Below, in pieces: positions 4,964 to 39,330 of a stretch of DNA of 64,000 bases (positions within the stretch are counted from its first letter, which is position 1; each line of letters begins with the position of its first letter). Origin of the DNA: an uncultured Candidatus Saccharibacteria bacterium (GTDB lineage: Bacteria > Patescibacteriota > Minisyncoccia > Phycocordibacterales > G965230995); contig OZ246398.1 of NCBI GenBank assembly GCA_965230995.1, positions 464,213 to 528,212 on the forward strand, read 5' to 3'. Position numbers and translations under genes: made by a program. Below the pieces are notes generated by a model, which ran no database searches, was not told the origin of the DNA, and saw nothing but the letters and a program-made list of their open reading frames with translations.

Positions 4964-5134
4964 AGATGTATTTTAAAAAAACTATTATTTCCCCGAACCG
5001 CTTTAAAGTCTACAAGAAACCATTATACATATTGACAGGGCTTTTGTAAAACTACATTGTAATGTAACATACAATACATATGAATATATTTAATATTCTA
5101 AAAAAGAAAAAAAAGAGCAAAGATTCAATATATA

Positions 5135-6267
5135 TGGACTATGCGTCTGCGACTTTTGTTTTACCAGAAGTCCATACGGCTATGGAACCATTTTTTGATA
5201 AAAATTTTTCTAACCCAGCGAGCCTATATCAAAGTGGTTTAGATGCAAGAGAAGCAATTTCAAATGCACGAAAAGATATTGCGAATGTAATTGGTTGTAG
5301 GCCAAATGAAATATATTTTACCGCAAGCGGAACCGAATCAAACAATATGGCATTTTTGGGATTGCGAGACAAAAATGGCAGGTTTGATGGTATGCATTTT
5401 GTGACAATGAAAACAGAACATTCTTCTGTTAAAGAAATAACAAAAGAAATTGAAAGACTTGGTGGAAGTGTGAGCTGCGCAAAATCTAACGACGACGGAA
5501 TTATTGATCTTGAAGATCTAGAACTATTGATCAAGAAAGAAACTGTGATGGTTTCCGTAATGATGGTTAATAATGAAATCGGGACAATACAACCCATAAA
5601 GGAAATTGCATCTGTAATAAGACGAGCAAACAAAAAATTTGGAAAAGAAATTATTTTTCATACTGATGCTTGCCAGGCACCGCAATATCTAAAAATAGAG
5701 ATAGAAAAATTAGGTGTTTCTATGCTTACGCTTGATTCTTCAAAAATTTATGGACCAAAGGGGATCGGTATGCTTTATGTTAAAAAGGGAATTAATTTAA
5801 AGCCGATAATTTTTGGTGGTGGTCAGGAGGGGGGCTTGCGTTCGGGGACAGAAAACGTCGCAGGTATTGTTGGATTTGCTAAAGCGATGGTTATTGTAGA
5901 TTCCGATAGGAAAAAAGAAACAGAGAGAATAAAAAATATCAGAGATTATGCTTTTAAAAAAATTACAGAAAATTTTCCGTCAGCGATTATAAATGGATCT
6001 GTAGAATCTAGAATTGCAAATAATATCAATGTTTGTTTTCCTGGTATCGATTCTGAATTTGTTGTAATAAAATTAGGATACGAAGGAATAGAATGTTCTT
6101 ACGCAAGCACTTGCAAGACCTTGGGTAACGATAATTCTTCTTATGTTCTAGAAGCAATTGGAAAAAAAGATTGTGCAACTTCATCGCTAAGGTTTACTTT
6201 CGGTAGAAAAACAGAAAAAGAAGACATTGATATTTTGATCAGTACACTAAAAAAGATTATTGCTTAG
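5135..6267 (+). CDS. Cysteine desulfurase (class V aminotransferase, NifS/IscS-like)
   Basis: TASGTESNN and PLP-lysine region SSKIYGPKGIG. The ORF track starts at 5080, but the conserved N-terminus begins at MDYASATF (5135). Confidence 0.8.
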
Positions 6268-32376: not shown

Positions 32377-32475
32377 TTTCTCCCACCCTCACTCTGATCG
32401 AGTTTCTTGAGCCGGCCCTCCCACAGGCCGGCTTCAACCTTTCAAAAAAAGCCTTTTTCAAATATACTTACCTGT

Positions 32476-33507
32476 ATGACACATATTGCGCTCTATCGAA
32501 AATACAGACCACAAACATTTAATGATGTAATAGGACAGGACCATATTGTTGATTCTCTAAAGCAATCTATAAAATCAAAATCAATTGCTCACGCCTATCT
32601 ATTTGCTGGATCCAAGGGAATAGGAAAAACAAGTATTGCAAGAATTTTTGCAAGAGAAATTGATGTAAAAGACGTAGATTTATATGAGCTTGATGCTGCT
32701 TCAAATAGAGGGATAGATGACGTTAGAGCAATGCGCGAAGCTGTACAGACCGTTCCGGTTTCTTCGCCATACAAAGTCTATATAATCGATGAAGCTCATA
32801 TGTTAACAAAAGAAGCTTTTAATGCTCTTTTGAAAACTCTCGAAGAACCTCCTGCTCATATCATTTTCATTCTCGCTACTACTGAAATGGAAAAATTGCC
32901 AGATACGATAATTTCTCGCTGTCAGGTATATAAATTTAGAAAACCAGGCAAAAAAATCCTGCAAAAAGCCGTTATTGATGTTGCAAAAAAAGAAGGGGTA
33001 GATATATCTCCGGAAATAGCTCATTTAATTGCGTCTGCGGGCGGGGGAGCCTTTCGAGATACTCTTGGTGTACTTGAAAAAGTTTTGGTTAGTGTTGGCA
33101 AGAAAAAAATCACTTCTGAAAATGTAAAAGAGATACTTGGCGAGACAGCCACATCTTTTGTATATGAATATTTGGAAAGTTTTTTCTCCCACGATGTTGC
33201 CAAGGGTATAAAAGCAATTTCTCTTGCAAAAGAATCTGGTTTTCAAATGAACATTTTTGGTGGAATGGTGCTTTCCAGGTTGCGAGCTGTTCTATTTCTG
33301 AGATTTTCACCGGCAAGTAAATCTGAAATCGAAGAAGAATACGGAGAAGAATTTGAAAACCTTTCTAAAATTGCAGAAGACAAGAAAAATATCTTAAATT
33401 CTGAAAAAATGATCAAAGCAATCGAAGCGATTTCAATGATAAAGAATTCTCCGATTCCAGAATTGCCTCTCGAATTGCTTCTTTTGGATGAAAGCGACAA
33501 AAAATAG
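32476..33507 (+). CDS. dnaX: DNA polymerase III subunit gamma/tau (minimal form)
   Basis: YRPQTFNDVIGQ…, Walker A GSKGIGKTS, SRC motif TIISRCQ. Start placed at MTHIALY; the track start includes a GC-rich leader. Confidence 0.85.
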   Translation: MTHIALYRKYRPQTFNDVIGQDHIVDSLKQSIKSKSIAHAYLFAGSKGIGKTSIARIFAREIDVKDVDLYELDAASNRGIDDVRAMREAVQTVPVSSPYKVYIIDEAHMLTKEAFNALLKTLEEPPAHIIFILATTEMEKLPDTIISRCQVYKFRKPGKKILQKAVIDVAKKEGVDISPEIAHLIASAGGGAFRDTLGVLEKVLVSVGKKKITSENVKEILGETATSFVYEYLESFFSHDVAKGIKAISLAKESGFQMNIFGGMVLSRLRAVLFLRFSPASKSEIEEEYGEEFENLSKIAEDKKNILNSEKMIKAIEAISMIKNSPIPELPLELLLLDESDKK

Positions 33508-33530
33508 CCTCTGTTTAAATTTTTTGAAAA

Positions 33531-33559
33531 CAGCGAATTTTGCTTCGCAAAATTCGCTG
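33531..33559. promoter_or_regulatory. 13-bp-arm perfect palindrome (cagcgaattttgc-ttc-gcaaaattcgctg); same core recurs at 42954-42984
   Basis: Inverted repeat without a following U-tract; second copy lies between divergent gene starts. Confidence 0.4.
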
Positions 33560-33645
33560 ATTTATGGTATAACATTTCTAGCCGGCTTTTCCGGTCATAC
33601 CAAAAAATATATTGGGTTGCTCAAAAGAGTGTATATAGAAGGTTT

Positions 33646-33678
33646 GTATTTTGTAATCGTAATTATTGGGGGATCGTC
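33646..33678 (+). repeat. 33-nt direct repeat, copy 1 (gtattttgtaatcgtaattattgggggatcgtc): 22 nt of leader plus the first 11 nt of tRNA-Gln
   Basis: Exact copy at 33968-34000. The two copies bracket the small GIY-YIG gene. Confidence 0.75.
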
Positions 33679-33731
33679 CCCGCCTGCCACGCTAGCTTTG
33701 GCGTTGCGGGCAGGTAATGGTATAAATAGTT

Positions 33732-33968
33732 ATGTATTTCACCTATGTATTAAAAAGTGAAAAGGATGACGACTTATACATCGGCTATACAGAAAATCTT
33801 CGTAGAAGATTTGAACAACACAACTCTGGGTTAGTAGAGTCAACAAAAGACCGAAAACCTTTTGTGCTTGTGTATTACGAAGCTTGTACCAATAAAGATA
33901 AAGCACTACTTCGCGAGAAGTATTTAAAGTCAGGTTTCGGTAGAAGATTTTTGAAGGACAGGATATAG
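33732..33968 (+). CDS. Small GIY-YIG nuclease-family protein (COG2827-like)
   Basis: YVLKS…LYIGYTENLRRRFEQHN motif; 78 aa. Confidence 0.75.
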   Translation: MYFTYVLKSEKDDDLYIGYTENLRRRFEQHNSGLVESTKDRKPFVLVYYEACTNKDKALLREKYLKSGFGRRFLKDRI

Positions 33969-34000
33969 TATTTTGTAATCGTAATTATTGGGGGATCGTC
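33968..34000 (+). repeat. 33-nt direct repeat, copy 2 (overlaps the 5' end of tRNA-Gln)
   Basis: Identical to 33646-33678. Confidence 0.75.
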
Positions 34001-34058
34001 TAATGGTAGGACAGAGGCCTTTGAAGCCTTTAATTTTGGTTCGACTCCAAGTCCCCCA
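33990..34058 (+). tRNA. tRNA-Gln (anticodon TTG)
   Basis: Acceptor gggggat/gtccccc, anticodon arm gaggc-ctttgaa-gcctt, T-loop ttcgact. Confidence 0.7.
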
Positions 34059-34216
34059 GCAACTATATTTTCTTAGCGACTCTGTCGCTTTAGAAAATAA
34101 TTTATCCCGAACGGACGTGAGGGAGGCGTCCCGAGATACTGCGAGGGGCAACTCGCGAAGCGACAAACATCCGAGCCACAGGATGTTGTCTTGTTATTTA
34201 ATGCTAAGATATAACC

Positions 34217-34471
34217 ATGTATCACGTCTACATACTCAAATGCAAAGACGGCACGCTATACACAGGAATCACTAATGATTTAGACAGAAGATTTTCTCAA
34301 CACAAAAACGGAAAGGGTGGACACTACACCAGCTCAAAAAGAGTATCAGAAATTGTATATACAGAAGAGTACCCCGACAGATCTTCGGCATCAAAAAGGG
34401 AAGCTGAAATCAAAAAATGGCGACGAGAAAAGAAACTAGACCTCATAAAATCAAACAAGCAAAAAAATTAA
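34217..34471 (+). CDS. Second small GIY-YIG nuclease-family protein
   Basis: YHVYILKCKDGTLYTGITNDLDRRFSQH motif; 84 aa. Confidence 0.75.
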   Translation: MYHVYILKCKDGTLYTGITNDLDRRFSQHKNGKGGHYTSSKRVSEIVYTEEYPDRSSASKREAEIKKWRREKKLDLIKSNKQKN

Positions 34472-34518
34472 CAACAATAATCACGCTGTTAGTTTTTCAA
34501 TTATGCTATCATTATATT

Positions 34519-35286
34519 ATGTACAAATCATTTACCGCAGAGCAATTCAAATCGCATTTAGGACTACCTTTAAATTACAGCGTTGAAGGCTTGCTTTCGT
34601 ATGGCGCTTGGGATGAACATAAACATCTTGATGAAATTCAAAAAATCTTGAACGAATTGGGTGTCACATACAAAAGCAAAATGCTCGCGGGTTTTCTTTG
34701 TCATATTTGCGAACTTGAAATAAATGGAAAGATATATTGGTTTACTATGCTTTATGGTGGAGCAATGCTTTCAGAATACACTCATCTAGCTTGCCTTTTT
34801 GGATCAAAGAAAAATATTCACATAGGAAGCTGTGGCGGGTTATATCCAGAAATGAATTCGCTTGATTTTTTGATACCAAAATGGAGCTTCGGAGACGAAA
34901 GTACGACCAGAATTTATGGCAGGGAAGTAAAAGACAACAAACACTACTCAAACAGTGATTTGTCAGAAAAATTAAAGAGTAAAATAACAATTAAAAATAA
35001 AATCTGGGATGGCCCTATTATTACCTGCCAAGCAATGATAGGAGAAACTTGGGATGATATAAAATCATGGACAGAACAGGGGTATTACGGAGTCGAAATG
35101 GAAACATCAACCGTCTTTTCTGTTTCCAATCATTTTAATGTGCCGAGCGCGAGTCTTTTGTATGTATCAGATAATCTAGTAAAAGGGCAAGTCGTCGGCG
35201 ATGAAAGCCATATTGCAGAAAAAGAACAAAGAGAAAAAGCAAAAGACGAAGTCTACAAGGCAAGCATTAAGACTTTGATAGAGTAA
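34519..35286 (+). CDS. Nucleoside phosphorylase family protein (PNP/UDP phosphorylase fold; DeoD/MTAP-like)
   Basis: IGSCGGL…DFLIP and GVEMETSTVF…VSDNL motifs. Start taken at MYKSF (34519), because the track start overlaps the GIY-YIG gene. Confidence 0.65.
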   Translation: MYKSFTAEQFKSHLGLPLNYSVEGLLSYGAWDEHKHLDEIQKILNELGVTYKSKMLAGFLCHICELEINGKIYWFTMLYGGAMLSEYTHLACLFGSKKNIHIGSCGGLYPEMNSLDFLIPKWSFGDESTTRIYGREVKDNKHYSNSDLSEKLKSKITIKNKIWDGPIITCQAMIGETWDDIKSWTEQGYYGVEMETSTVFSVSNHFNVPSASLLYVSDNLVKGQVVGDESHIAEKEQREKAKDEVYKASIKTLIE

Positions 35287-35455
35287 CTATTCTAAAAATA
35301 AAAAAGGGGGGGGAATTAAACGGCTGTAATAATAGCCCTATGCATTTTTGGTGTTTGTAATATAGCCAAAAGTGGAATAGAATGGAAATTATGGCTTTTA
35401 TATAATATTTTAGCTTCCTAGCCTTTTAATTTTTGAAATATCTTATATCTTCATT

Positions 35456-35803
35456 ATGAAAAAAATCGATGATCTAACGAAAAGAATTATATCATTCCGA
35501 GACGCTAGGGATTGGAAACAATTTCATAATCCTAAAGACGTTGCTCTTTCGTTGGTGTTAGAAGCAACCGAGGTCATGGAACATTTTCAGTGGAAGAATA
35601 AGGAGGTGATGGATAAATATATAGTAACAAACAAAACTGATATTGGTGAAGAATTGGCAGATGTTTTGTACTGGATATTGCTCATGAGTCATGATCTCAA
35701 TATAGACGTGTTAGACGCACTAGAGAAAAAGATTAAAGTCAACGAAGGTAAATATCCGGTTGAAAAGGCAAAAGGTAAATATACTAAATACAACAAATTG
35801 TAA
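35456..35803 (+). CDS. MazG-like all-alpha NTP pyrophosphohydrolase
   Basis: EATEVMEHF and EELADVLYWIL (EExxE/D metal-binding motifs); 115 aa. Its stop codon lies 1 nt before the next gene's ATG. Confidence 0.7.
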   Translation: MKKIDDLTKRIISFRDARDWKQFHNPKDVALSLVLEATEVMEHFQWKNKEVMDKYIVTNKTDIGEELADVLYWILLMSHDLNIDVLDALEKKIKVNEGKYPVEKAKGKYTKYNKL

Positions 35804-35804
35804 T

Positions 35805-37850
35805 ATGTCTAATATAGTTACCTTTAAATATAATAAGAATAATTTTGACAAAATTAAGGATTATCATTTTGGAAAAAATTGGCCCGTGGTTTATGTCCTC
35901 GAAAACAAGAAAGAGGTTTATATCGGCCAGACAATAAATGCCTATTATAGAAGTAAACAACATTATGAAAATCCAGAGAGAAGAAAGCTAAGTGAGATTC
36001 ATATTATAACAGATGAGGAGTTTAATGTTTCTGCGACATTGGATATTGAGTCATGGCTCATTCAGTATATTTCCGCAGACGGTAAATATTTATTACAGAA
36101 TGGTAATGGAGGTCTAAGAAATCATAATTATTATGATAGGGTAAAATATGAGACTAAGTTCGAAATCACTTGGAATAAATTGCAGGAAAAGGGTATTGTG
36201 CATAACTCACTACATGACTTGAAGAATAGTGATTTATTTAAATACTCGCCATATAAATCTCTTACAGAAGATCAGTATATAATTTCAAGAGAAATTTTCT
36301 CGGATATTGTAAGTAGCCAGAACAACACAATTATTGTTAATGGAGGTGCTGGTATAGGTAAGACAATACTGGCTACTTATCTGCTTAAGTTTCTAAAGGA
36401 GCAAAAGGAAACAAGCCATCTTTCTATGGCCATTATTGTTCCAATGACACAGTTGCGCCAGTCAATTAAGAAGGTGTTTAAGAACATAAAAGGCTTATCA
36501 CCTGGTATGGTAATAAGCCCAAGTCAGGTAATTGGTGGTAAATATGATTTGGTCATTATAGATGAAGCGCATCGACTCCATCGTCCTTTAAATATTTCAA
36601 ATTTAGGCTCACATTACAAAAACAATGATAAATTAAGATTGTCGAAAAAAGAAGGAACTGAGTTGGATTGGATATTGAAGGAAACAAAAAAGCAAATATT
36701 TTTTTATGATGAAAAACAAACAGTGGGTCCATCTGGGGTTAGGAGTGAAGAATTCAAAAAAATAAATGCTAAAAATTTATTTCTTACAGGTCAAATGCGT
36801 ATTGAAGCTGGTGATGCCTACATTAAATTAATTGATGACTTTTTTAATCTTAGAAAAACAAGAAACAATAGTCTCGGAGAATATGAATTTGAGATTTATG
36901 ATGACATACGAAAATTATTTGATGACATAAAAGAAAGAAATACGAAACACGGTCTCTCTCGTGTTGTTGCTGGCTATGCTTGGCCATGGCATACAAAGCC
37001 CAATAGAAAAAAATCTAAAGATTACGACATAGAGATTGATGGATATAAGGCAGTTTGGAACTCAACAACTAAGGATTGGATGAATTCAAAAAATGCTATA
37101 AATGAAGTTGGGTGTATACATACTGTGCAGGGATATGGACTAAATTATGCTGGGGTTATAATTGGCCCGGAGTTTGGATATGATCCAAAAAGTAAAACTT
37201 TCTTCGTAGATAAGAAAAAATATTTTGACAGAAACGGTAGGGCTGGTGTTCATGATATATTAGAGCTAGAACAATATATTAAAAATATTTATAGAATTTT
37301 ATTAACACGTGGTATAAAGGGAACATATGTTTACGCTGTCGATAAAAATTTGAGAGATTACTTAAAAGATCAATTTAAGTTTAAAAATACTAAAGAAATT
37401 ATCAAAAGCAACAATATTAATAAAGAAAAAATACTTTCTCCATACGCAAATAACTATATTAATGTACCGTTAGTAGGATCTGCGCCTTGCGGAAATCCAT
37501 TATTGGGTGAAGAAAATATAGAAGATTATATTAAGGTAAAAAAAGAAAAAATAAAAATTGGATACAAATATTTTATTGTTAGGGCAGTTGGTGATTCCAT
37601 GAATATAGCTGGAATCAATGATCAAGATTTGGTTCTTTGTCGGTATTCGGAAAAGGGAGAAACTGGTGATAAGGTAATTGCGTTGTTGGGTGGTGAGAAT
37701 GTTACTATAAAGTTTTACGATAAAAGTGGAGATCGAAGAATACTACTACCAAAAAGCAGTAACCCAATACATAAACCAATTGTCCCAGAAGAGGGAGATA
37801 TTGTCCAGGGTGTAGTGCAGGAAGTTTTACCTCCTACTAATTTAAATTAA
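35805..37850 (+). CDS. Three-domain fusion: N-terminal GIY-YIG nuclease, DUF2075 (SF1-helicase-like P-loop ATPase), C-terminal LexA/UmuD-type S24 autopeptidase
   Basis: GIY-YIG: VVYVLENKKEVYIGQT…R…QHYE. DUF2075: Walker A IIVNGGAGIGKT, Walker B DLVIIDEAHRL, tail motif IHTVQGYGLNYAGVIIG. S24: cleavage loop VPLVGSAPC^GNPLLGEENIED, Ser motif VGDSM, Lys in VTIKFY, LLP…KPI tail. ATG at 35805 follows the MazG stop (the track's alternative start is 35760). Confidence 0.8.
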   Translation: MSNIVTFKYNKNNFDKIKDYHFGKNWPVVYVLENKKEVYIGQTINAYYRSKQHYENPERRKLSEIHIITDEEFNVSATLDIESWLIQYISADGKYLLQNGNGGLRNHNYYDRVKYETKFEITWNKLQEKGIVHNSLHDLKNSDLFKYSPYKSLTEDQYIISREIFSDIVSSQNNTIIVNGGAGIGKTILATYLLKFLKEQKETSHLSMAIIVPMTQLRQSIKKVFKNIKGLSPGMVISPSQVIGGKYDLVIIDEAHRLHRPLNISNLGSHYKNNDKLRLSKKEGTELDWILKETKKQIFFYDEKQTVGPSGVRSEEFKKINAKNLFLTGQMRIEAGDAYIKLIDDFFNLRKTRNNSLGEYEFEIYDDIRKLFDDIKERNTKHGLSRVVAGYAWPWHTKPNRKKSKDYDIEIDGYKAVWNSTTKDWMNSKNAINEVGCIHTVQGYGLNYAGVIIGPEFGYDPKSKTFFVDKKKYFDRNGRAGVHDILELEQYIKNIYRILLTRGIKGTYVYAVDKNLRDYLKDQFKFKNTKEIIKSNNINKEKILSPYANNYINVPLVGSAPCGNPLLGEENIEDYIKVKKEKIKIGYKYFIVRAVGDSMNIAGINDQDLVLCRYSEKGETGDKVIALLGGENVTIKFYDKSGDRRILLPKSSNPIHKPIVPEEGDIVQGVVQEVLPPTNLN

Positions 37851-37973: not shown

Positions 37974-38567
37974 CTAGACCGGAGTGGAAGTGAACCACTT
38001 CCAGTGGAGAATGTGCATCGGGCTCACATTCTGATCTGGCAGGTCGGTGCGCGGCGTAGTGAGAACCATTTTGCGGTAATCATCCCAATACGCACGCTCC
38101 ATCTCCAGATAGGTGTTTCGGCATGCACCGGGGTTCTTGTCTATCTCGGCCCTAAGTGAGGACACGAGATCATCCAAGGTTTCGTGTACAGCGGGGTCTG
38201 CGGAGAATTCGTCCTGAGGTATGGTTGGCGTCTGTTGGTTTTGCCAACCCTTACTTACCACATCACGACGAGCGGTTTGCAACAATGCAAAGCAACTCTC
38301 CGTTGTGATTGGTGATGCGTTGTCGTCAGTCCAACACGAGGTAGCCCCGATGCTGTTCGGCATGTTACGCCTTCCGTTGAACCTGACGTCGAGAAGGCAA
38401 GCCCTGAGCTGAATGAGCTGGTGAATGTAGCAAGGACGTGCCGGAACAAGACCGTCTGCGGTCTTCTTCGAGAGAATCTTTACGCAAAGTCTCTCCAGTG
38501 GTCCTTGCATTACTTCCCGGACCCCATCCATGGGTCGTGAGTCACGGTGGTCGATGAGATTGCTCAT
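37974..38567 (-). CDS. Hypothetical protein, GC-rich islet gene 1 (RBS aaGGAGGac upstream)
   Basis: 197-aa ORF, atypical composition, own promoter-like motif at 38609-38633. Confidence 0.45.
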   Translation of the reverse strand: MSNLIDHRDSRPMDGVREVMQGPLERLCVKILSKKTADGLVPARPCYIHQLIQLRACLLDVRFNGRRNMPNSIGATSCWTDDNASPITTESCFALLQTARRDVVSKGWQNQQTPTIPQDEFSADPAVHETLDDLVSSLRAEIDKNPGACRNTYLEMERAYWDDYRKMVLTTPRTDLPDQNVSPMHILHWKWFTSTPV

Positions 38568-38608
38568 ATAGTCCTCCTTCGCAAGTTGTGGTTTCTCGGT
38601 TGTGTGTT

Positions 38609-38633
38609 CTATGACAAAACAGTTCTATTTCAA
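38609..38633 (-). promoter_or_regulatory. Conserved promoter/operator-like motif TTGAAATAGAACTGTTTTGTCATAG (minus strand) upstream of 37974..38567
   Basis: Near-identical to the motif at 39356-39380. Contains an AGAAC-N-GTTYT inverted repeat. Confidence 0.45.
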
Positions 38634-38733
38634 CACTATCACCATTCATATTTCAAGACAATATATATAAAAAGCGCCCCTCTACGTGAGAGGGGCGGGT
38701 GACACGGGGACGAGAACGGTGGTGCGGTGAAAA

Positions 38734-39330
38734 CTACTTCAGCTCAATCAGGTCGTGATCCACCATGTGCAACGCTGAGACCATGCGGACCCTCAGGTCA
38801 GCCCTGACCGGCAGGAGCTTTTCCTTGATCTTGTTCCAGTAGTTGAGTTCAGCCATGAGTGCTTGGAATTGATCGGGAGTAAGTTCCAGATCGTCCGTTG
38901 TGGCAATGAGAACGCCCACAATGGCATCAATAACCAAGTGGACAATCTGGTTTGCCCAGAACTTCTCCTTCTTGATCACGATGTGAGGAATCGGCGCCGA
39001 CGCGTCATGGGGGTGGCTGGCCAAGTGCTTTTGATGAGCGTGATCAGTGTGGATCAGGATACCCCGGCCACTCGAAGGGAAAAGAGCAAAAGAAGAACTT
39101 GGCGGTTCAAGCTCAGCATTCTTATATAGCTCGTGACCCCTGGCCTGCATCATGTTGTAGAGGACACAGAGGTGAACAGGGAAACGAGGACCTCTGCTTA
39201 CCCTGGTCATATTGTCCAACAAAAGATTGCAGACCCAGTCAAATTGATCCTCCAAGACATCAATCACGAGGGGTAGTGGTTCCAGTTCAAGTCGACGCAA
39301 CACCTCGAGGTCTGTTGTAGGTCCAGACAT
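38734..39330 (-). CDS. Hypothetical protein, GC-rich islet gene 2
   Basis: 198-aa ORF, atypical composition, own copy of the promoter-like motif. Confidence 0.45.
   Translation of the reverse strand: MSGPTTDLEVLRRLELEPLPLVIDVLEDQFDWVCNLLLDNMTRVSRGPRFPVHLCVLYNMMQARGHELYKNAELEPPSSSFALFPSSGRGILIHTDHAHQKHLASHPHDASAPIPHIVIKKEKFWANQIVHLVIDAIVGVLIATTDDLELTPDQFQALMAELNYWNKIKEKLLPVRADLRVRMVSALHMVDHDLIELK

Follow-up and report, generated by a model that had tools for sequence, protein, structure and literature searches.

A GIY-YIG gene and a GC-rich palindrome at the duplicated 5' end of tRNA-Gln in a Candidatus Saccharibacteria bacterium: a probable selfish cassette with relatives at many tRNA genes

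In a 64,000-nucleotide stretch of contig OZ246398.1 from an uncultured Candidatus Saccharibacteria bacterium (GCA_965230995.1, positions 464,213 to 528,212; hereafter the window), the gene for tRNA-Gln(UUG) is preceded by a 322-bp unit consisting of a GC-rich hairpin, 8 nt of tRNA sequence, a short spacer, a 78-aa open reading frame (ORF) encoding a GIY-YIG nuclease (GIY-YIG 1) and a duplicated 33 nt. We consider this unit to be probably (about 60%) a recent insertion of a selfish, homing-endonuclease-like GIY-YIG cassette into the 5' part of tRNA-Gln, and a member of a tRNA-gene clade that extends across the candidate phyla radiation (CPR). CPR bacteria (Patescibacteria) have tiny genomes, usually with one copy per tRNA gene, yet a gene that resembles a parasite appears to have settled in these essential genes time after time while leaving them intact.

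The 33-mer GTATTTTGTAATCGTAATTATTGGGGGATCGTC was present exactly twice in the window, at 33646–33678 and 33968–34000 on the forward strand, with all 33 positions identical, as claimed in a preliminary description of this DNA. No further copy was found in the window at up to three mismatches, and none was expected by chance (100 shuffles). The first copy (orphan fragment A) comprises 21 nt of leader and tRNA-Gln nt 1–12, rather than the 22 nt and 11 nt first proposed, since ARAGORN places the start of the tRNA at 33989. The second copy consists of the last base of the stop codon of GIY-YIG 1, 20 nt of leader and tRNA nt 1–12, and leads into the complete tRNA-Gln (33989–34060, forward strand; ARAGORN anticodon ttg; Rfam RF00005, 60.4 bits), which has no encoded CCA. 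The 289 bp between the copies hold the 78-aa GIY-YIG gene, as described, together with elements that the description had left out of this interval: a 36-nt imperfect GC-rich palindrome (CCCGCCTGCCACGC...GCGTTGCGGGCAGG; 33679–33714, assigned to neither strand) that splits the orphan tRNA fragment in its D-arm, the 8 nt TAATGGTA (orphan fragment B; 33715–33722, forward strand) and an AT-rich spacer of 9 nt (33723–33731). The ORF itself (33732–33968, forward strand; PF01541, E = 6e-18) has a TAG stop codon that ends on the first base of the second copy. A GC hairpin does follow the first copy, but the statement that it is not followed by tRNA did not hold, as reading of the sequence shows tRNA-Gln resuming beyond the hairpin for nt 13–20 (8/8 in a gapped alignment). 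Taken in full, the first copy is a perfect 41-nt duplicate of leader and tRNA nt 1–20 (41/41 nt), split by the hairpin. The placement of the hairpin inside the duplicated tRNA fragment and the recurrence of this layout across the family are additions to the preliminary description.

The window probably derives from a metagenome-assembled genome (MAG), which would allow the repeat to be an assembly artefact, or a chance repeat in a coincidental gene order. We give this explanation almost no weight. Chance matches to the 33-mer are not expected, and the same layout was found in about 30 unrelated assemblies. In addition, a Logan contig from SRR14271366 stops at window position 33675, the last 31-mer holding a unique base left of the first copy, and a Logan contig from SRR14271374 begins at 33994, inside the second copy. 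Contigs assembled at k = 31 are expected to break at a genuine 33-nt repeat, and the left break falls exactly where such a repeat predicts, which argues against an artefact, with the independence of the two assemblies limited by the fact that both runs may share a sequencing project with the window's genome.

GIY-YIG 1 had 1246 homologues in a protein search, 59–74% identical among the matches listed, and nearly all of the listed homologues with a named source were from Patescibacteria; one protein, encoded on an NCBI contig of 742,714 bp, was 100% identical. The layout was compared over 80 loci encoding relatives of GIY-YIG 1 (58–73% identical) from species-representative GTDB genomes, in which tRNAs were annotated. 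A tRNA on the same strand started between -40 and +400 nt from the stop codon of the ORF in 52 of the 80 loci, and in 35 of these 52 it started no more than 30 nt from the stop (median gap 5 nt); no antisense tRNA adjoined the ORF at any of the 80 loci. The linked tRNAs represented 17 anticodon types, most often Lys (18 loci), Gln (11, window included) and Asn (5), followed by Val, Thr, Phe, Pro, Leu, His, Met, Glu and Ile. Of the 33 loci whose tRNA starts no more than 30 nt from the stop (the window and 32 relatives), about 30 showed the window-type layout upstream of the ORF, with L037, L040 and L046 as weak or unclear cases. In order, it consists of 0–35 nt of local leader, the 5' part of a tRNA interrupted mostly at nt 6–21 (median 13), a GC hairpin of 33–73 nt, a further 7–22 nt of tRNA ending at nt 9–38 (median 23), 0–30 nt of spacer and the ATG of the ORF, and the complete tRNA begins 0–20 nt past the stop codon.

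The orphan fragments matched the complete tRNA at their own locus with 95% identity (805 of 846 aligned bases over the 29 loci scored, in local alignments, which favour matches), and unusual D-arms (L065, L006, L044) were reproduced in their orphans. This agreement at each locus indicates that the duplication was generated locally, site by site. The duplicated segment runs from the tRNA 5' end, with 0–35 nt of leader, to tRNA nt 9–38 and is therefore variable in length; its edges cluster at mature tRNA ends, and the overlap with the stop codon is often 1–5 nt. Variations on the layout included a mirror image (L003), in which a complete tRNA-Lys is followed by the ORF and then by a tRNA 3' portion with the hairpin in its T-loop, hairpin-bearing orphans on both sides of the ORF, giving two orphan copies (L002, L010, L059), and tandem ORFs (L027, L073, L080). 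Two proposals on transcription were examined and set aside. The edge of the duplication does not appear to be a transcription start, as -10-like hexamers showed no preferred distance from it across 24 loci. An outward promoter in the 3' end of the ORF (TTGGTA-16-TAGAAT) was compatible with the consensus, but the T before AGA was present in only about 20 of 33 loci; the stretch in question encodes AT-rich Lys-Asn-Arg-Ile codons, and its reading as a promoter is speculation only.

Some loci also contained unusual tRNA-like sequences. At L034 (4044–4300), the GIY-YIG ORF is followed by a hairpin that borders directly on a tRNA-like 5' half. Past the position of the anticodon loop, this half runs into a long, structured sequence resembling a group I intron, and ARAGORN calls no tRNA there. 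L032 (3400–3950) carries a pseudo-tRNA in which a short GC hairpin replaces the anticodon arm, and L031 (4325–4440) a pseudo-tRNA with the palindrome in its D-loop and a complete 3' half, each beside a functional tRNA and a GIY-YIG ORF.

The palindrome has the consensus CCCGCC[C/T]GC...GC[G/A]GGCGGG, is imperfect and was found in both orientations. Its motif matched only once in the window, and across the 80 loci 43 of 50 matches lay within 200 nt of a homologous ORF; control loci selected by way of dnaX (487 kb) contained no true copy. The DNA fold of 33667–33731 had an energy of -14.7 kcal/mol (z = -2.9). Hairpins were 100% identical between loci whose ORFs share only 68–77% DNA identity, and such near-invariance beside diverging ORFs implies either a very strong constraint on its sequence or movement independent of the ORF. 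Compensatory covariation was considered and rejected: by eye, the commonest variant (CCGCCTGC...GCGGGCAG) retains one C·A mismatch and one T·G pair, whichever its orientation. As these mismatches are kept and not compensated, we regard the hairpin as an imperfect palindrome conserved in DNA and not as a proven RNA helix.

GIY-YIG 1 belongs to the minimal Slx1/UPF0213 (YhbQ-like) branch of the GIY-YIG superfamily, to which it is closer than to UvrC or I-TevI, and has no accessory domain. Its PF01541 score was 65.3 bits (cut-off 22.6). An alignment of 27 sequences showed Y5, Y16, G18, R26, H30, E50 and E62 to be invariant, the catalytic Tyr-Tyr-Arg-(His)-Glu constellation. The family profile matched the structural-genomics proteins UPF0213 BH0048 and EF2693 in the PDB (1zg2, E = 8.6e-9; 1ywl, E = 2.7e-7) as well as an SLX1 homologue. 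An AlphaFold2 model (predicted local distance difference test, pLDDT, 93) had the order beta-beta-alpha-beta-alpha-alpha, and Foldseek returned UPF0213/Slx1 structures (E = 1.5e-4 to 1e-2) ahead of the weaker I-TevI and UvrC catalytic domains (E = 0.1–0.4). No specific NCBIfam family was found for either of the two GIY-YIG proteins at this locus. Differences at the three codon positions were 0.29, 0.19 and 0.51, third positions differing at 51% of sites; judged from its sequences, the family is under purifying selection and evolves as a coding gene.

The tRNA-linked loci formed one clade in a neighbour-joining tree, which was weakly resolved, and encode 78-aa proteins that end in NRI directly at the tRNA. 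Relatives without a linked tRNA, some of them from outside the CPR, fell into other clades, carry a C-terminal extension ending in RLKSYLTG and have no hairpin. Among the latter, two copies in one MAG (L074, L075) shared 99.6% DNA identity in different flanks, with a third from another species (L068) at 94%; L074 and L075 were the only near-identical copies in an all-against-all comparison of the ORFs, and this suggests that the unlinked clade is mobile by some other vehicle. Only one match was found in IMG/VR when phage carriage was searched for, and GIY-YIG 1 is chromosomal.

Comparison with related genomes, proposed in the preliminary description as a means of finding an empty site, was made at the dnaX–tRNA-Gln junction. 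The gene for DNA polymerase III gamma/tau (dnaX; 32482–33507, forward strand; Pfam DNA_pol3_delta2 and AAA) is the conserved upstream neighbour of the cassette in the window, followed by a terminator-like hairpin at 33531–33559 (terminator scan), and the order dnaX then tRNA-Gln is retained in relatives. Those relatives found through DnaX (45–51% identical) that keep tRNA-Gln(ttg) downstream of dnaX included three empty sites (L094, L099, L085) with only 39–95 nt between dnaX and the tRNA, and a fourth (L162) that is empty for gene 1, with the order dnaX-GFA-tRNA-Gln and then a homologue of the second GIY-YIG gene, and without a GIY-YIG gene upstream of the tRNA. Two sites were filled. One (L096) has tRNA-Gln nt 1–12, a different hairpin, tRNA nt 13–27, a GIY-YIG ORF only 38% identical and the tRNA, and the other (L084) an ORF 48% identical without a clear orphan. 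A decayed site was present in L086/L087 (about 5024–5382), where a 359-nt spacer contains a degenerate tRNA-Gln 5' fragment and an ORF end, AATAGAATAT, abutting the tRNA; by its sequence, this spacer resembles the remains of a GIY-YIG cassette since lost. The succession of empty, filled and apparently fossil sites is that of a mobile insertion, as read from sequence comparison and across deep divergence only. The proposal that a tiny GIY-YIG cassette was inserted with a duplication at the 5' side of the tRNA gains support from these empty sites in distant relatives.

A selfish cassette of this kind could spread as follows. With 0–20 nt to the tRNA and 0–30 nt from the orphan, the ORF has no room for a promoter or terminator of its own and is therefore probably read from the tRNA promoter that remains ahead of the orphan. 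RNase P would free the tRNA from the co-transcript. The nuclease would cut, or nick in a structure-specific manner, the conserved tRNA-gene DNA in the D-arm (in the T-arm for mirror-image copies), and recombinational repair would then copy the cassette into uninvaded tRNA genes. Only those events that regenerate an intact tRNA would survive, the tRNA being kept whole by the duplication of its 5' end. Such selection would explain the duplication edges at mature tRNA ends and the 1–5 nt of microhomology at the stop codon. The edges would also fit microhomology-mediated joining, and a transcript may be involved as well. The palindrome may be the cognate DNA partner of the nuclease, acting either as a plug that destroys the target in the orphan or as a structure recognised by the enzyme, or alternatively it may be a separate mobile partner. 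We infer both the mode of cleavage and the role of the hairpin.

A number of observations weigh against a selfish, homing-like cassette. The cleavage activity and the target of the family are predicted only. The entire 78-aa protein is a catalytic core without a DNA-binding domain (NUMOD, zinc finger or helix-turn-helix), and to our knowledge every characterised homing endonuclease carries one. The complete downstream tRNA keeps an intact D-arm, so that a simple logic of target destruction leaves it unprotected, and the model does not account for the formation of a perfect local duplication at each new tRNA. In the species-dereplicated sample, ORFs at different tRNAs were only about 75% identical in DNA and no pair of tRNA-linked copies in the all-against-all comparison exceeded about 78%, meaning that the sample captured no recent move of the cassette from one tRNA to another. 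The place of the hairpin within the tRNA varies (mostly nt 6–21), as does its orientation, and it may for this reason be an independent element. Finally, the empty sites come from distant relatives only (DnaX 45–51% identical); an empty allele from the same species was not found, with no match to the exact empty-site 47-mer in JGI metagenomes and no record in exact-protein look-ups for GIY-YIG 1 and DnaX.

A further reading, which we consider less likely than not, is that the locus belongs to a previously unrecognised class of bacterial mobile element. Here a minimal structure-specific Slx1-like GIY-YIG nuclease and its cognate GC palindrome would colonise the transcribed tRNA genes of CPR bacteria by neither classical sequence-specific homing nor transposition. 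The duplication would begin near the 5' end of the transcript or mature tRNA and reach into the D-arm, or in mirror copies extend from the 3' end into the T-arm, so that the tRNA would survive and the parasite would use its promoter; one possibility is cleavage of a hairpin, bubble or R-loop at tRNA genes followed by microhomology-mediated repair. We think it unlikely that the palindrome is instead the primary mobile unit and the GIY-YIG protein its structure-specific mobilising nuclease, in the manner of repetitive extragenic palindromic (REP) elements and their REP-associated tyrosine transposases (RAYTs). The hairpin would then invade tRNA loops, only invasions of redundant duplicated fragments would survive, and the ORF would be a neighbouring helper. 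This would suit a hairpin conserved far better than the ORF (100% versus 68–77%) that is found either way round and at differing positions in D-loops and T-loops (the anticodon arm holding a different small hairpin), as well as the hairpin-bearing orphans that stand without an ORF before the tRNA (L002, L010, L059, L031) and the Slx1-type structure-specific nucleases that are the nearest solved relatives. Against it, the hairpin is not dispersed: the 64-kb window has a single copy, the 487 kb of CPR control loci have none, and almost all others lie within 200 nt of an ORF. GIY-YIG enzymes, moreover, hydrolyse DNA and are not known for strand transfer.

A role in the service of the host is less probable again. 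The GIY-YIG protein would in this case be a beneficial factor co-expressed with tRNAs, perhaps a nuclease whose substrate is tRNA or the DNA structures that accompany transcription at tRNA genes, and the duplication an incidental scar. Strong purifying selection and catalytic residues intact across very divergent lineages would be in keeping with this, as would the obligatory same-strand position directly upstream of a tRNA, which implies co-expression, and the report of TrmH, the tRNA Gm18 methyltransferase, fused to a prokaryotic Slx1-like domain (PMC1564403). However, the site is patchily empty, filled or decayed, many different tRNAs are occupied with a fresh local duplication at each, and tandem and fossil copies exist, which are signatures of repeated insertion and loss and not of a fixed operon. 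Nor do the classical tenants of tRNA genes account for the locus. tRNA genes are well-known integration sites and hosts of group I introns, so that the repeat might be an attachment scar of an integrase-type island, or the ORF a homing endonuclease in a tRNA group I intron. The repeat, however, covers the 5' and not the 3' end of the tRNA, and just 289 bp lie between its copies. A domain scan of six ORFs from 32407 to 37850 detected no integrase, and the window has no second copy of the tRNA-Gln 3' end. An Rfam scan of 33000–35500 at E ≤ 1 gave no family besides tRNA and no ribozyme core, and the downstream tRNA is complete and uninterrupted. We regard both possibilities as negligible. An insertion sequence or miniature inverted-repeat transposable element was also rejected, given that no terminal inverted repeats surround the ORF, the duplication varies in length and the hairpin is single-copy in the window.

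Mobile endonuclease ORFs of fungal mitochondria (the Allomyces atp6/GIY-YIG ORF and the 'mORFs' of Glomus) duplicate the end of the gene that they invade. They are free-standing at the gene terminus, leave one functional and one displaced partial terminus and are sometimes accompanied by GC-rich or double-hairpin elements. Their targets are protein-coding genes, and the functional terminus is imported with the element. In contrast, the CPR duplicate matches the local tRNA and leader (41/41 nt in the window), and the two systems are unlike in host organism and in nuclease subfamily. Nearest among known systems is SegB of phage T4, a free-standing GIY-YIG homing endonuclease whose gene lies within a tRNA gene cluster (PMC2330249) and is, like the CPR cassette, present or absent between related genomes. 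SegB recognises the conserved T-arm motif GGTTCRANTCC, and many tRNA genes are targeted as a result (PMC2330249); its cleavage triggers recombination between the tRNA 5' region and the 3' end of its own gene, giving rise to duplications (PMC13096335). It differs in being a phage protein with a NUMOD3 DNA-binding motif in its C-terminal part (PMC2330249), whereas the CPR protein is chromosomal and consists of the core only, and in having neither a conserved palindrome nor a fixed orphan–ORF–tRNA arrangement. Measured against the free-standing homing endonuclease genes of the Seg and Mob type, the cassette shows presence and absence at a conserved locus, between distant relatives only, and has no DNA-binding domain; with its activity predicted only, it answers to that definition in part.

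The same minimal domain and fold occur in the prokaryotic stand-alone Slx1-like/UPF0213 (YhbQ-type) proteins (1zg2, 1ywl), although the tRNA-linked CPR clade is shorter and ends directly at the tRNA. A survey of stand-alone Slx1-like domains assigned them no biochemical function and mentioned neither linkage to tRNA genes nor flanking repeats (PMC1564403). Within the same group of organisms, non-intron insertions encoding GIY-YIG proteins have been reported from CPR rRNA genes and described as sparse and not obviously homing (PMC11270868). They resemble the present cassette as GIY-YIG ORFs that occupy stable-RNA genes or their edges and lack a group I or II ribozyme. Their sites are inside rRNA genes, however, and the paper mentions no association with tRNA, no duplication and no palindrome. 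No prior description of the present arrangement was found in the literature searchable by full text, a corpus outside which most subscription journals fall. In kind, we would place the cassette among selfish endonuclease genes at stable-RNA genes, and there is a real chance that the nuclease–palindrome pair uses a mechanism not yet described.

If the selfish-cassette reading is correct, duplication of the target end together with a palindromic plug would be a new strategy for surviving in essential targets, besides introns, inteins and intronless homing. It would also provide the first functional context for the large stand-alone Slx1/UPF0213-type GIY-YIG family, and would explain many of the tRNA fragments and GC-rich hairpins that stand unannotated in CPR genomes and can interrupt assemblies and mislead tRNA annotation. 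At 78 aa and about 40 nt respectively, the enzyme and palindrome are small enough for direct in vitro work.

Downstream of the tRNA, the window contains a second GIY-YIG gene (34217–34471, forward strand; 84 aa; PF01541, E = 3e-21, 75.9 bits), followed by a gene for a PNP_UDP_1 family phosphorylase (34520–35286, forward strand; Pfam), the likely start of which, ATG at 34520, was read by eye. The identification of both small ORFs as GIY-YIG genes with a PNP-family gene behind them was thus correct, and the second GIY-YIG gene is indeed a different one, being 39% identical to the first. It belongs to a separate CPR-wide family with homologues 65–80% identical, represented at L100, L162–L164, L168, L169–L172 and L037. 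Several of these adjoin tRNA-Gln in either orientation (L100, L162, L168, L169/L171, L037); at L037 a 14-nt copy of the tRNA 3' end comes after the homologue. No tRNA duplicate flanking the second gene, that of the tRNA 3' end included, was found in the window, where alignment scores stayed at noise level. The second gene resembles an earlier occupant of this tRNA, related to the first. It is separated from the tRNA by a structured spacer of 156 nt (34061–34216, forward strand) with a terminator-like hairpin (about 34066–34099) and then three GC-rich hairpins upstream of the gene. The RNA fold of this spacer had an energy of -48.6 kcal/mol (z = -3.7; 0 of 200 shuffles as stable), and Rfam gave no match to it. 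In L100, L162, L037 and L018, homologues of the second gene also lie behind GC-rich spacers, in which a GAGCGAAG(C/T)GA-like motif recurs.

The preliminary description had further placed the left edge of an accessory island at this tRNA; synteny with L163 was too remote to inform on island borders, and the PNP gene, the sole downstream gene searched for, was not found in the distant dnaX relatives. At 35760–37850 lies a gene for a fusion of an SLFN-g3/DUF2075 helicase with an S24 peptidase, which has a weak N-terminal GIY-YIG match (residues 43–74, Pfam E = 0.0024), and a tblastn search with GIY-YIG 1 gave a weak match at 35892–35963, within the same gene. Counted tentatively, its N-terminus would bring the GIY-YIG-like modules within 4 kb to three, this one lying downstream of a MazG-like gene. 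Beyond it, the region 37974–39330 has a GC content of 0.52 compared to about 0.36 and carries two minus-strand ORFs of 197 and 198 aa, which have no Pfam match and are 26% identical to each other over 76 residues.

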